This document shows positions 15,919 to 45,855 of a stretch of 64,000 nucleotides of DNA, piece by piece. The notes beneath the pieces are model-generated. The model saw only the letters and a program-made list of their open reading frames with translations. It was not told the DNA's origin and ran no database searches. The position numbers and the translations under genes were made by a program. The stretch is from Eledone cirrhosa. Lineage: Eukaryota. The stretch lies in the NCBI GenBank assembly GCA_964016885.1, contig OZ024742.1:5084001-5148000 (forward strand), in the 5' to 3' direction. The stretch's first letter is position 1; each line of letters starts with the position of its first letter.

Positions 15919-17350
15919 AAATTGGAATAAATGCTCTGAAATAGCGATATATATGTGAATATAGACATAGAATATTCGAAAATATTCTGTATGTTTATAA
16001 TAAACATTTTGAAGACCTAATCGCTATAGAATAGAATACGTCACGTATTACAATTAGATTCTCGATAAAAGCAAGGGAAGTAATCTACGCGTTTCATTCT
16101 TGTTAGAAATCTTCAGGACTACATATCCAGTGCTTTTATCGAGAATGACACAGCTAGAGACTTATAGAATACTTAGCTGTGTACAGGAACTGGTTTGAAA
16201 GAGCGGTTGCCGGTCCGGCAGAAATTAGAAATTGGAAGCACTGGATATGTAGTCCTGAAGATTTCTAACAAGAATGAAACGCGTAGATTACTTCCCTTGC
16301 TTTTATCGAGAATCTAATTGTAATACGTGACGTATTCTATTCTATAGCGATTAGGTCTTCAAAGTGTTTATTATAAACATACAGAATATTTTCGAATATT
16401 CTATGTCTATATTCACATATATATCGCTATTTCAGAGCATTTATTCCAATTTCTAATTTCTGCCGGACCGGCAACCGCTCTTTCAAACCAGTTCCTGTAC
16501 ACAGCTAAGTATTCTATAAGTCTCTAGCTGTGTCATTCTCGATAAAAGCAGTGGATATGTAGTCCTGGAGATTTCTAACAAGAATGAAACGCGTAGATTA
16601 CTTCCCTTGCTTTTATCGAGAATCTAATTGTAATACGTGACGTATTCTATTCTATAGCGATTAGGTCTTCAAAGTGTTTATTATAAACATACAGAATATT
16701 TTCGAATATTCTATGTCTATATTCACATATATATCGCTATTTCAGAGCATTTATTCCAATTTCTAATTTCTGCCGGACCGGCAACCGCTCTTTCAAACCA
16801 GTTCCTGTACACAGCTAAGTATTCTATAAGTCTCTAGCTGTGTCATTCTCGATAAAAGCAGTGGATATGTAGTCCTGGAGATTTCTAACAAGAATAAAAC
16901 GCGTAGATTACTTCCCTTGCTTTTATCGAGAATCTAATTGTAATACGTGACGTATTCTATTCTATAGCGATTAGGTCTTCAAAATGTTTATTATAAACAT
17001 ACAGAATATTTTCGAATATTCTATGTCTATATTCACATATATATCGCTATTTCAGAGCATTTATTCCAATTTCTAATTTCTGCCGGACCGGCAACCGCTC
17101 TTTCAAACCAGTTCCTGTACACAGCTAAGTATTCTATAAGTCTCTAGCTGTGTCATTCTCGATAAAAGCACTGGATATGTAGTCCTGAAGATTTCTAACA
17201 AGAATGAAACGCGTAGATTACTTCCCTTGCTTTTATCGAGAATCTAATTGTAATACGTGACGTATTCTATTCTATAGCGATTAGGTCTTCAAAATGTTTA
17301 TTATAAACATACAGAATATTTTCGAATATTCTATGTCTATATTCACATAT
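15919..17350 (+). repeat. 310-bp tandem repeat (~3.6 units) plus one inverted unit, each with a type I hammerhead; retrozyme-like / non-autonomous PLE
   Basis: Hammerhead motifs start at 16249, 16559, 16869 and 17179 (spacing 310); 15919-16236 is the reverse complement of the unit; (TA)n on both sides. Confidence 0.88.
16249..16291 (+). ncRNA. Type I hammerhead ribozyme (minimal, palindromic stem III)
   Basis: GTAGTC-CTGAAGA-T TTCT aaca AGAA T-GAA-ACGCGT-A-GATTAC: stem I GTAGTC/GATTAC, GUA cleavage triplet. Intact copies also at 17179-17221 (+) and 16080-16122 (-); core-mutated copies at 16559 and 16869. Confidence 0.8.
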
Positions 17351-17370
17351 ATATATATATATATATATAT

Positions 17371-19470
17371 TAAAATAACAGATTAAAGTTTAAGCAAAGA
17401 ATCGCTGCTTTCACCCTTAACGGGATCTTCTGAAACTAACAATGTCAATCTGTAAACGCAGAAGTCGATATTTCAAAAAACGTAGCAACAGGAGGAAGAC
17501 AGTCGTTAATTACCTTGACGTTACCCTCAATTTATCGAATAGGTTGTATTACCCGTATAGAAAGCCGAACGATACGCTTAATTACATAAGTAAGGATTCC
17601 AACCATCCTGCCAGCATAACCAAGAACCTGGTAAGAAACGTTTCGTTGAGGCTTTCCCGTCTATCTATTAACGAGCATATTTTCAACGACCATTCCACTT
17701 ATTACAATGAAGCTCTTGCTCGGAGTGGATTTGTCGATAAGGTAGCATATACAGAGTACGAAAATAGACCTAGAAGTAATAAATCCCGTCGCGTTTGTTG
17801 GTATACCATTAACTAAGATCTTTCTTTCCCTTATTACGAAGCATTTTCCCCTACACATAAATATAGTAAACTTTTTAATAGAAATACTATTAAAATGTCT
17901 TACTCTACGACTCCTAACCTTGCACATAACATCACAGCTTCAAATTTAGCTAAACTACCTAACTGTAGGAACACGTGCAACCCTGTAGTTAGTACTAACT
18001 ATAATTGTAGGAATCGGGTTGATTGCCCCCTATCCGGGAAATGCCTCTCTAGTAACATTGTCTACAAATGTAAGGTTGAAACACCCACGTCCCGTAGGGC
18101 CTACATAGGGTTAACCGCCAATAGATTAAAGCAGCGTCTTTACATGCATACCCATTCTTTTCGTTACCCTATTAGAAGGAATATGACGTCACTTTCAGCT
18201 TATATCTGGAGTCTAAAAGACAACCACACCCAATTTAAGTTACACTGGGAGATCTTAGCTAGGGCTAGATCGTATAACGGAAATAAAAGACATTGTGACC
18301 TCTGCGCCGCTGAGGCCCTGGAAATACTCTACGCCACAGACCACATCTTAAACAAAAAATCTGAGGCAATTTCGGCTTGTAAACATAAATTGCACAAAAC
18401 TTTCCTGTATTACAGCCCCACATTATACCCTAACGGATAGTACGATCTATACGTGGAGTTTTTACGTCTTGATGTGGTAGCTAAGTATATGTTTTGTTTA
18501 TACCATTACTTATTTGCATAGGTAAGTATATATTACCTGTATGTTTTGTGAAGGTACGTATACTTCCTCATACGTATATTTGATTGATTATGTTGTGGCG
18601 TATACATTTTTTATATTTTCTGGTACATATGGTTTGGTTATGTGTATACGGGAGTTTTGCGTCTGCGTGTGTATGCAGGTTCGTACGTATGTAGGGTGTG
18701 TGTATATGTGTACTTCATGTTTTGGCTGACTTACGTCTTCGAACATTTGTGTATTTACATATAGGTATGTGGGTGCGCTTGTTATATGCGTATTTATTTA
18801 TTTTTATACATTTATTTAATTATTTATTTGTATACACGCGCGCACACACACACACACACACACACACACACACACACACACACATATTTATATGTGCGTG
18901 GTTTTGTATACCTATGGCAAGTGTTTTGCGTATGCTTGTGTATGTACGTATTTGAATGTGTGTATGCATTTATATAATTTCTATTACCCCTGTATTGTTT
19001 TTATTTACTTTTTTCTTAACTCTGAAGCGGAGATTCATTCGGTTTCATAGTTAGAATTTAGTCTACGACTTCAGCTATACCATTTACGTGGTTTTGTCTT
19101 TGCGTGCAATTGTTCTCAACGCTCCACATATGACGTATTATCTTCGTTTTTTCCGTTCATTGCCAGAGAACGTCTCTATGAACCACCTAAGAGAACATTA
19201 GTCTACGACCTCTTTTATACCATAAACGTGGTTCTGTCTTTGCGCGTAATTGTTTTTAATATTAATGACGTATTATATTCGTTTTTTCCCGTTCTTTGCC
19301 AGGGAACGTTTCCACGAACCAAAGTATCGTCTTCCTGTCTTCCTCCGGTTGCAACGTTTTTTGAAATATCCAGTGCTGCGTTTACAGATTGACTTTGTTA
19401 GTTTCAGAAGATCCTGTTAAGGGTGAAAGCAGCGATTCTTTGCTTAAACTTTAATCTGTTATGTCAATAA
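17371..19470 (+). mobile_element. 5'-truncated Penelope-like element (RT thumb + GIY-YIG) with ~90-bp inverted terminal copy
   Basis: VNYLDVTLNL...YRKPN...SNHP (RT C-terminus); CRNRVDCPLSGKCL, IVYKC...YIG, CDLC (GIY-YIG) in 17895-18440; 17375-17461 is the reverse complement of 19376-19461; (TA)n flanks. Confidence 0.88.
19400..19450 (+). ncRNA. Variant type I hammerhead ribozyme (U4A core) in the PLE pseudo-LTR; inverted copy at 17387-17437
   Basis: AGTTT-CAGAAGA-T CCT gttaa GGG T-GAA-AGCA gcgattctt TGCT-T-AAACT; all three stems pair but the core is non-canonical. Confidence 0.55.
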
Positions 19471-44356: not shown

Positions 44357-44744
44357 TTAATAAGAGGAATTCCAACTTTGTCTGATTTACTCGTTTTATT
44401 TACAATCCTTTAAAATTTATAATGGTATTATAATGAAATAGTATGATAGAATATTAAATTCTAAGTGTTAATTGAACAAGTACTTTCATGCTTTCGCAAT
44501 CTTCAGGTTCATAATATGTGGTGACAGTCAAGTTTGCAATTTTCAACAAGACAGTTGAAAATTGCAAACTTGACTGTCACCACATATTATGAACCTGAAG
44601 ATTGCGAAAGCATGAAAGTACTTGTTCAATTAACACTTAGAATTTAATATTCTATCATACTATTTCATTATAATACCATTATAAATTTTAAAGGATTGTA
44701 ATTAAAACGAGTAAATCAGACAAAGTTGGAATTCCTCTTATTAA
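44357..44744. mobile_element. ~390-bp palindrome (6-bp spacer) carrying hammerheads
   Basis: 44357-44547 is the reverse complement of 44554-44744; (TA)n flanks. Confidence 0.9.
44590..44628 (+). ncRNA. Minimal type I hammerhead ribozyme; inverted copy at 44473-44511
   Basis: TGAAC-CTGAAGA-T TGC gaaa GCA T-GAA-AGTACT-T-GTTCA; GNRA loop II, palindromic stem III, CUU triplet. Confidence 0.8.
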
Positions 44745-45855
44745 CATAATCTTCTATACACAATCATACACACCCGTGTATATTTATATATATATATATA
44801 TATATATATATATATATATATATATATGAATGAAGTATTTCCGTCGGAAAGGTAAAGGAAAAAAGAGTGCTCATATGTAAATGTGTATGAATCTGTAGTT
44901 TTGTGTGTATGTATATATAGAGAGCGAGAGGGAGAGAGAGAGAGACATATAGATGGACATATACAGATAGATATATGCAGATTCGAATGAAACAGTTCTA
45001 GTACTGTATAAGTCATTTTTATATTAAACTTGATATAAATACAGTGTGCCCCGATATTCGCGGAACGTTCCTTAGAACCTAACTAATAATTGTTCGTAGA
45101 AACCATCGCGGAATCGTAAATATATTTTTATATCGATTATTTCGTTGCTTTTTTTCGTGATAATATTTTTTTTTTTTCAGACATTTTACACTAAATTATT
45201 AACAGTAATGAAGGACTACGAAACAGCAATGTACCGGAGGGTTTTGAAAAATACTTCCCTGGAGCTAACAAGACCCCGCCACGAAAAGAAGCCCGACCCA
45301 GTGGTACCAAACAAAAAGCTATGCTTAATCTCTCTCGCTCCCTCACACATTTACATGAGGTCATATAATTCAGCATTGTGTCTCTTACTAAATGTTAAAA
45401 GAAAGGCAAGCTTTTAACTGACAAATAATTAGATACATAGATACGATGCGTCGCCCTAATGTCATGTTTCTGTATGGCTGATGTCTGAACTTTATAAGTA
45501 GAACATACCCACACCCAATAAGGGAGATAAACAAATTGTTAGATTATAGAGTAGCCTCACTTGCAATTAAGATCTTATTTTTTGCAGTTTTTTCATACAT
45601 AATTGATATGGATGTCTGTTTTTTGTGTGTGTGTATGTATGCATATATATAGAGAGAGTGAGTGAGTGAGATAGATGGGTAGATGGACAAGGCGGTCTCT
45701 CAAAGGTTTCCCGGTTGTTGTAATGATAGGGAACCCAATTCTATCATGAAAAACCTAAAAAGAAAGCAACTGGTTCAGGAGTAAAATGTGCTTGCTGACA
45801 TATGTTTAAGATCGAGGCACACTAACCGTTGAACCATTACCATCACATACTGAAC

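Follow-up and report, generated by a model that had tools for sequence, protein, structure and literature searches.

This report concerns a 64,000-nucleotide (nt) stretch of Eledone cirrhosa DNA (assembly GCA_964016885.1, contig OZ024742.1, positions 5,084,001 to 5,148,000), called the window throughout, and in particular seven elements in it, A to G, that carry 16 hammerhead ribozyme motifs and border on runs of (TA)n. Sequence comparison makes it probable that the window holds stacked insertions of Penelope-like elements (PLEs) in (TA)n, and that two hairpins downstream of the hammerhead fix where the reverse transcriptase (RT) starts. Hammerheads, inversions and tails are ordinary PLE features; the new part is the twin hairpin.

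Seven hammerhead hosts embedded in (TA)n

The host elements are listed below, with positions counted from the first letter of the window.

15919..17354, no single strand: element A, a 310-nt non-coding, retrozyme-like unit; a tailed copy on the minus strand (15919-16237) is joined head-to-head to 3.6 tandem copies on the plus strand (16236-17354)
17372..19467, plus strand: element B, a Hydra-clade PLE, 5'-truncated, that carries an inverted 3' end of 131 nt on the 5' side
20232..24600, minus strand: element C, a full-length Hydra-clade PLE with a 90-nt tail
24612..25698, minus strand: element G, 1.1 kb, non-coding, tail-less, not inverted, with (TA)n at both ends
35487..36469, no single strand: element D, a fold-back with 332-nt arms, a 250-nt unpaired centre and a 67-nt tail on the minus-strand arm
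36514..39029, no single strand: element E, a palindrome with 1.2-kb arms, a 16-nt centre and an 86-nt tail on the minus-strand arm
44358..44778, no single strand: element F, a palindrome with 190-nt arms, a 6-nt centre and a tail of about 34 nt without a hairpin

A first-pass annotation had given these hosts one architecture, with (TA)n flanks, an inverted duplication of the ribozyme-bearing end and often an unpaired tail on one arm, and most of this description holds. Each of the 13 host 3' ends has a (TA)n run no more than about 15 nt away, 11 of the 18 TA runs of at least 14 nt in positions 1-45850 touch these elements, and the neighbours A and B, C and G, and D and E each have a run in common. 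The 3' end is duplicated in inverse orientation in six of the seven hosts, and in the head-to-head hosts the 3' ends face outward into (TA)n; G, with its hammerhead at 24650, is the exception and is single. One-sided tails measure about 28 nt in A, about 90 in C, 67 in D, about 86 in E and about 34 in F, while B has only about 10-15 extra nt. The annotation also called the hosts unrelated. Their bodies indeed cannot be aligned to one another, but C, D and E share a tail hairpin, and the U.U pair in the hammerheads of A, B, D and F is common in the Hydra clade.

Several details of these elements may be recorded here. Variants among the tandem copies of A (16236-17354) occur in blocks, with two shared by copies 2 and 3 and one by copies 3 and 4 and the inverted copy, suggesting local duplication or a multi-unit source transcript. 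The arms of E and F, which are 99% identical, stop 16 and 6 nt apart (37809-37824 and 44548-44553), unlike those of A-D, and two independent primings do not explain this spacing. A decayed hammerhead-bearing end at 44985-45037 on the plus strand, missing from the first-pass list, is 81% like D over 53 nt. An older inverted pair, 35188-35416 and 39478-39710 (211 matches, 8 mismatches, 3 gaps), encloses D and E and has (TA)n at its inner ends and no hammerhead.

Hammerhead motifs

All 16 hammerheads lie at, or no more than about 2 nt from, the starts given in the first-pass annotation.

16080..16122, minus strand: hammerhead A, with CUGAAGA, U.U at the base of stem II, a palindromic stem III and GUA
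16249..16291, plus strand: hammerhead A, intact core
16559..16601, plus strand: hammerhead A, A6G
16869..16911, plus strand: hammerhead A, A6G and G12A
17179..17221, plus strand: hammerhead A, intact core
17387..17437, minus strand: hammerhead B, inverted copy, core CAGAAGA, CUU site
19400..19450, plus strand: hammerhead B, sense copy
20363..20427, minus strand: hammerhead C, sense copy, long stem II, AUA
24490..24554, plus strand: hammerhead C, inverted copy
24650..24696, minus strand: hammerhead G, core CCGAAGA, 4-bp stem I, GUA
35570..35620, minus strand: hammerhead D, one stem II pair broken
36405..36455, plus strand: hammerhead D, intact
36638..36708, minus strand: hammerhead E
38924..38994, plus strand: hammerhead E
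44473..44511, minus strand: hammerhead F, CUU site
44590..44628, plus strand: hammerhead F

With a type I descriptor that demands at least 5 bp in stem I, positions 15919-44780 contain 14 matches, against a mean of 0.045 (maximum 1) in 200 block-wise dinucleotide shuffles, the null used for each of these counts; at least 4 bp gives 15 against 0.09 (maximum 2), and the strict core CUGANGA/GAAA gives 10 against none. An equal rate in shuffled sequence, named beforehand as grounds for refutation, is thus not what was found, and a chance origin of the motifs is ruled out by the shuffle counts. The sixteenth motif (35570) is the inverted twin of that at 36405, with C>A in stem II. Positions 1-15918 contain no hammerhead by the same type I descriptor, and an Rfam search of the window detected none of the 16. 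Because the motifs amount to only seven distinct sequences (five copies in A, two each in B, C, D, E and F, one in G), they are not independent.

The type I core (C3-U4-G5-A6-N7-G8-A9, G12-A13-A14-A15, NUH and three stems) is strict in 10 of the 16, the remainder having core changes in five and a broken stem II in one. A6G is found in the A copies at 16559 and 16869, the latter with G12A in addition, and both copies are likely inactive. The U4A of B and U4C of G may be decay; 38 motifs from related loci all have U4. Hammerheads B and F have U at the cleavage position, and A, B, D and F have a U.U pair at 10.1-11.1, the base of stem II, as do 16 of the 38 related motifs. The window hammerheads likely cut weakly or as dimers only.

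Two coding hosts of the Hydra clade

That two hosts encode a PLE protein of RT and GIY-YIG endonuclease proved correct. The open reading frames (ORFs) and associated repeats are these.

17503..18440, plus strand: B ORF remnant, broken, with RT thumb, linker and GIY-YIG; profile positions about 380-699 of 708
21988..24207, minus strand: C ORF, RT, CxCX5C linker and GIY-YIG, with two frameshifts and one stop; profile positions 1-701 of 708
24253-24360, minus strand: upstream pseudo-long terminal repeat (pseudo-LTR) of C, 108 nt
24361-24600, no strand given: inverted tail-less 3' end of C, 240 nt
37824..37874, plus strand: last Hydra-clade ORF codons at the centre of E (E 0.013), with a mirror copy at 37750-37806 on the minus strand

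The 708-position profile was built from 28 homologs longer than 650 amino acids among 70 found, two of which bear octopus names; an octopus member of the Hydra clade is listed by Craig 2021 (PMC8557442). A single ORF with RT followed by a C-terminal GIY-YIG endonuclease is present in C and partly preserved in B. Both have the CxCX5C linker (its first Cys changed in B), both lack the CCHH cysteine pair between GIY and YIG, with CxxC and CxH flanking E/N, and both combine (TA)n insertion with a hammerhead near the 3' end. At the RWK and DKT sites, which are the homolog consensus, C has RWR and NKT; B does not include the region. The main body of C, about 4.0 kb, exceeds the "generally <3 kb" of the clade because its 3' untranslated region (UTR) takes up 1.6 kb. 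B and C are clearly of the Hydra clade by these motifs, which were compared by eye with the published alignment. Pfam searches of the B and C frames returned no RT or GIY-YIG match, and the family profile matched no solved structure.

A twin hairpin downstream of the hammerhead

Comparison was made with 79 related loci, fetched from the best 80 of 462 confirmed and forming 68 families at 90%. An ORF end is recognisable in 58; 51 of these extend at least 150 nt further, and 37 of the 51 have a 3' hammerhead. Related elements that are full-length have the hammerhead first, then an AT-rich tract, hairpin 1, another AT-rich tract, hairpin 2 and finally the ATG. Downstream of the hammerhead, GCTC-N-GAGCAC matches 110 times in sense and 13 times in antisense over the 79 loci, with 3-20 matches in 20 shuffles. 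Near the 51 ORF starts the 3' word, of GAGCAC type, occurs at least twice at 42, once at five and not at all at four, and a complementary 4-mer lies upstream of 78 of 89 words (shuffled mean 5.5, maximum 15). The hairpin so defined is 20-30 nt long, with a 4-bp GCUC/GAGC stem, a 2-nt 3' bulge, a covarying upper stem and an internal spacer of variable length (8-19 nt), and its twin copies stand 59-83 nt apart (n=27).

Of 83 distinct hairpins, 79 have a Watson-Crick pair 1 in the upper stem, across the bulge (51 C-G, 28 U-A), against 0-11 in other registers; with one locus taken from each of the 68 families, 76 of 80 do. The Watson-Crick count is 53 of 79 for pair 2 and 29 of 48 for pair 3, which has 8 G.U in addition; a fourth pair does not rise above chance among the 83 hairpins. 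An alignment of 81 of them has a covariation score of 0.302 (shuffled 0.121, slid at most 0.126) and 91% of its cells paired (17-56% slid), under controls that do not fully remove the relatedness of the loci. The bulge-spanning C-G is present in 36 of 36 Hydra loci and in 7 of 40 viral-contig sequences that match the twin pattern by chance; none of those 40 has a Hydra ORF, and the scan served as a control only. Rfam searches of the window and of 20 of the 79 related loci did not detect the hairpin.

A model built from the related loci alone gives, as its five best matches in the window, four hairpins that occupy five places.

20294..20315, minus strand: hairpin 1 in the C tail, ACUC/GAGU with UC bulge; model E 0.013
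24319..24340, minus strand: hairpin 1 in the upstream pseudo-LTR of C; E 0.013; the tail-less end stops 2 nt before it
24228..24247, minus strand: hairpin 2 in the C 5' UTR, 20 nt before the ATG; E 1.9e-6; the tailed end stops 5 nt before it
35528..35548, minus strand: hairpin 1 in the D tail; E 0.15; the tail-less end stops 5 nt before it
36569..36595, minus strand: hairpin 1 in the E tail; E 0.36; the tail-less end stops 4 nt before it

In C, D and E the first pair of hairpin 1 is changed from G-C to A-U. The spacing of 93 nt between the two hairpins of C, together with the 59-83 nt of the related loci, accounts for tail lengths of 67-90 nt, a tail being what lies between one hairpin and the other.

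Register of copy ends

Related loci show two classes of end, one before hairpin 1 and the other before hairpin 2. Window ends stop 2-5 nt before a hairpin in four of four cases (two in C, one each in D and E), and that of A stops 1 nt before a degenerate hairpin look-alike. Comparison of 3' ends with longer copies gave 17 rows, of which four below 94% identity were dropped (distances 4, 22, 38 and 41). Among the 13 same-family ends that remain, 10 lie between -3 and +6 nt from a hairpin, with P of about 1e-6 under a crude uniform null. Window ends overlap (TA)n by 1-8 nt, D by only 1.

At the 5' side of three related elements, (TA)n stands 5-21 nt upstream of a hairpin (L018:454-476, L029:951-978, L034:2994-3030), as if full-length copies also began at a start site.

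A number of observations weigh against assigning the starts to the hairpins, a reading whose support is entirely comparative. Three same-family ends out of the 13 are 22, 28 and 63 nt away from a hairpin, and three of the four dropped rows are at 22-41 nt. The TA overlap alone could set the ends, because the hairpins follow AT-rich tracts, with an AT content of 82% in the 8 nt ahead of the stems. All four pairs of the lower stem are constant throughout the alignment, in part owing to how the hairpins were selected, and so add no covariation. Minimum free energy (MFE) gave the hairpins no advantage over versions with shuffled loops (25 of 64), which is why pair-register statistics were used, and G.U outnumbers A.C only 12 to 4, fixing the folding strand weakly. 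In the window itself, the E-values of the D and E hairpins are weak when taken alone, the short tails of A and F contain no match to the model, B and G have no hairpin, and A, F and G can be assigned to the clade only indirectly. Finally, the start site of the Poseidon PLE is reported as not homologous to the cut DNA in the parts of Frangieh 2024 (PMC11167929) drawn on here.

How two starts could produce tailed fold-backs

A mechanism that would join these observations begins with the binding of the hairpins by an RT-GIY-YIG protein, which would also nick the self-complementary (TA)n on both strands. Priming before hairpin 1, on one of them, would yield the tail-less arm; priming before hairpin 2, on the other, would yield an arm whose tail contains hairpin 1, with the 1-8 nt of TA overlap helping the priming. 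The two cDNAs would then join head-to-head as a fold-back with one tail. The (TA)n left on both sides of each insertion would attract the next, as the chains A|B, C|G and D|E suggest. Element C includes a whole ORF and stops at hairpin 2, which its own 3' repeat lacks; the template of C must have been tandem, jumped or circular, with a tandem transcript as the conservative reading.

The reverse transcriptases of PLEs are the closest relatives of telomerase. A bolder proposal, for which we would give about even chances, is that the twin hairpin is a clade-wide RNA anchor of the Hydra PLE RT, like a telomerase template boundary, with each of two active sites binding one hairpin and priming just 5' of it on opposite (TA)n strands. 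If true, this anchor module would explain the tail, the fold-backs and the mobilisation of passengers without an ORF, and C-type copies would need an RNA that was tandem, template-jumped or circularised by the hammerhead. As a general cause, L1-type twin priming in its plain form, on a single template, was considered and set aside: the junctions of A and C, some 20 nt from the first start site, agree with it, and those of B, D, E and F do not.

Hosts without an ORF and alternative explanations

The first-pass annotation held that all hosts other than B and C are non-coding. This fails for E, at whose centre 17 residues followed by a stop match the C-terminus of the Hydra ORF (of 918 tiles, only those of B and C match better); a non-coding E was rejected accordingly, and E is most likely a 5'-truncated autonomous element. 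Searches of A, D, F and G with the ORF profile gave no clade-diagnostic match. The distance from stop to hammerhead is 965 nt in B, 1574 in C and 1028 in E, and D (about 580 nt before the first end site) and F (190 nt) are shorter than these 3' UTRs, while G (1.1 kb) is about as long. D, F and G fit inside such a 3' UTR and therefore cannot be called non-autonomous from the window, truncation explaining them equally well; for most hosts that lack an ORF, a 5'-truncated copy with a long 3' UTR is the likely explanation. A is the only host with independent evidence of being a non-coding unit: its 310-nt repeats run head-to-tail in 3.6 copies plus one inverted, the longest stop-free frame is 59 amino acids, and each unit has one type I hammerhead and falls within the 150-450 nt of tandem retrozyme units. 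A is likely a true non-autonomous retrozyme.

The 3' UTRs of B, C and E (18441-19400, 20427-21990 and 37905-38924) are long beside the 57-461 nt from stop to hammerhead in related loci, and those of B and E contain internal duplications.

The wider proposal of the annotation, a diverse set of non-autonomous ribozyme retroelements parasitising (TA)n-targeting PLEs, suits A and is otherwise overstated. That D, E, F, G and A are mostly independent parasites of Hydra PLEs seems to us unlikely. The tail hairpin of D is that of the coding C and would suffice for mobilisation in trans, and the lack of an ORF match in D, F and G agrees with such a reading, as does A; but E begins in the end of a Hydra ORF, the 3' UTRs are long enough for D, F and G to be their truncated remains, and the 45.9-kb non-satellite part of the window holds no second dispersed copy of any host, save the D-like scrap.

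Two further alternatives bear on the hairpins and the fold-backs. The twin motif might act in the 5' UTR as a promoter, in translation control or in packaging, and be adjacent to copy ends only through AT-rich tracts. We think this doubtful: the 3' word does lie 13-50 nt before the projected ORF start in 46 of 89 cases, and the AT content and TA overlap allow it, yet the variable spacer and covarying upper stem argue against a double-stranded DNA site, and two motifs match two end classes in a common 1-6 nt register that includes D, with its single nucleotide of TA overlap. The fold-backs, for their part, might arise by snap-back self-priming, in which one tailed cDNA copies itself back to a TA-like tract, with no second priming. 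Self-priming of PLEs has been proposed earlier (PMC3846280), and the close-set, near-identical arms of E and F suit it; we nevertheless consider it rather improbable, in view of a tail-less arm in A that is 3.5 times longer than the tailed one, of ends before hairpin 1 in loci with no detected inverted copy (L020, L037 and L052, for example) and of the Poseidon protein, which is described as nicking and extending both strands from both sites (PMC11167929). Two hairpin-directed starts in stacked PLE insertions remain the reading that we prefer.

Other features of the window

Also absent from the first-pass list, a degenerate element end at 39066..39210 on the minus strand has a decayed hammerhead and the 3' half of a tail hairpin (model E 9.9, weak). 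Between B and C, at 19505-20167, an RT-like fragment of a long interspersed nuclear element (LINE) has frames on both strands round a short inverted overlap, of the 5'-inversion type, and (TA)n flanks. Decayed endonuclease-RT non-LTR elements with tandem copies ending in (AGAT)n occupy 746-13700, and a decayed non-LTR region at 27300-32300 contains a broken RT element with inserts like short interspersed nuclear elements (SINEs). Positions 45858-64000 are reported as an 18-kb satellite with periods of 54/90/126 nt, 88% matches and long spurious ORFs.

Comparison with known systems

The link of the hammerheads to PLEs, the inverted pseudo-LTRs and the targeting of (TA)n, all recognised in the first-pass annotation, were already published (PMC8557442; Arkhipova 2013, PMC3846280). 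In the passages of Craig 2021 (PMC8557442) used here, the Hydra clade is described by (TA)n targeting, a 3' hammerhead, the CxCX5C linker and a length generally below 3 kb; an inverted 5'-truncated copy with a one-sided tail of 30-40 bp is typical of PLEs, and many hammerheads in the table for the clade have U.U at the base of stem II and U at the cleavage position. The window elements share the RT, linker and GIY-YIG order, the insertion site, the 3' hammerhead, the inverted truncated copy and the one-sided tail, and differ in tails of 67-90 nt in C, D and E and 3' UTRs of 1-1.6 kb.

The twin bulged hairpin is apparently undescribed, as we did not find it in the literature searched, where figures and the supplements of the bioRxiv preprint might show it. 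The words "hairpin", "stem-loop" and "GAGCAC" are absent from the main text of Craig 2021; in its supplement GAGCAC is found in 70 places, the first 15 listed being all unrelated, and by eye the Hydra-2_Amil consensus given there contains the hairpin motif.

Non-autonomous hammerhead repeats derived from PLEs are also on record (PMC7229834; bioRxiv 10.64898/2026.07.22.740005). Element A resembles the metazoan non-LTR retrozymes in its AT-rich, self-paired tandem unit with one type I hammerhead each and no ORF, and adds to them the insertion signature of a PLE, namely the inverted unit, the tail and the (TA)n flanks; D, E, F and G are not tandem. Short palindromic stem III, as in the minimal PLE hammerheads that act as dimers (PMC4209133, in part), is also found in A, E and F, for which low monomer activity is expected. 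Eight of nine frog retrozyme dimers did not cleave in Li 2026 (bioRxiv 10.64898/2026.07.22.740005).

The closest parallel to the proposed starts is Poseidon of Anolis carolinensis. As set out in the sections of Frangieh 2024 (PMC11167929) used above, two internal RT starts downstream of the hammerhead bound the tail in vitro, both strands of AT-rich DNA are nicked and extended, and hammerhead cleavage is dispensable in vitro. The Poseidon starts are located within the ORF and are described as part of an AC-rich stem loop; the binding motif is bounded only to the first 172 nt. Poseidon belongs to another clade, and the Hydra hairpin differs in being repeated, clade-wide, placed in the 5' UTR and 1-6 nt 3' of each end; by analogy, the Hydra-clade hairpins likely set the two internal starts known from Poseidon. 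The 2024 in vitro study bounded the signal by which PLE reverse transcriptases choose an internal start, without defining it. A structured motif of 20-30 nt that occurs twice and keeps register with the two end classes in dozens of element families invites a direct mutational test. The hairpin could also mark stubs without an ORF as Hydra-clade, and serve as a minimal tag for mobilising cargo into (TA)n.

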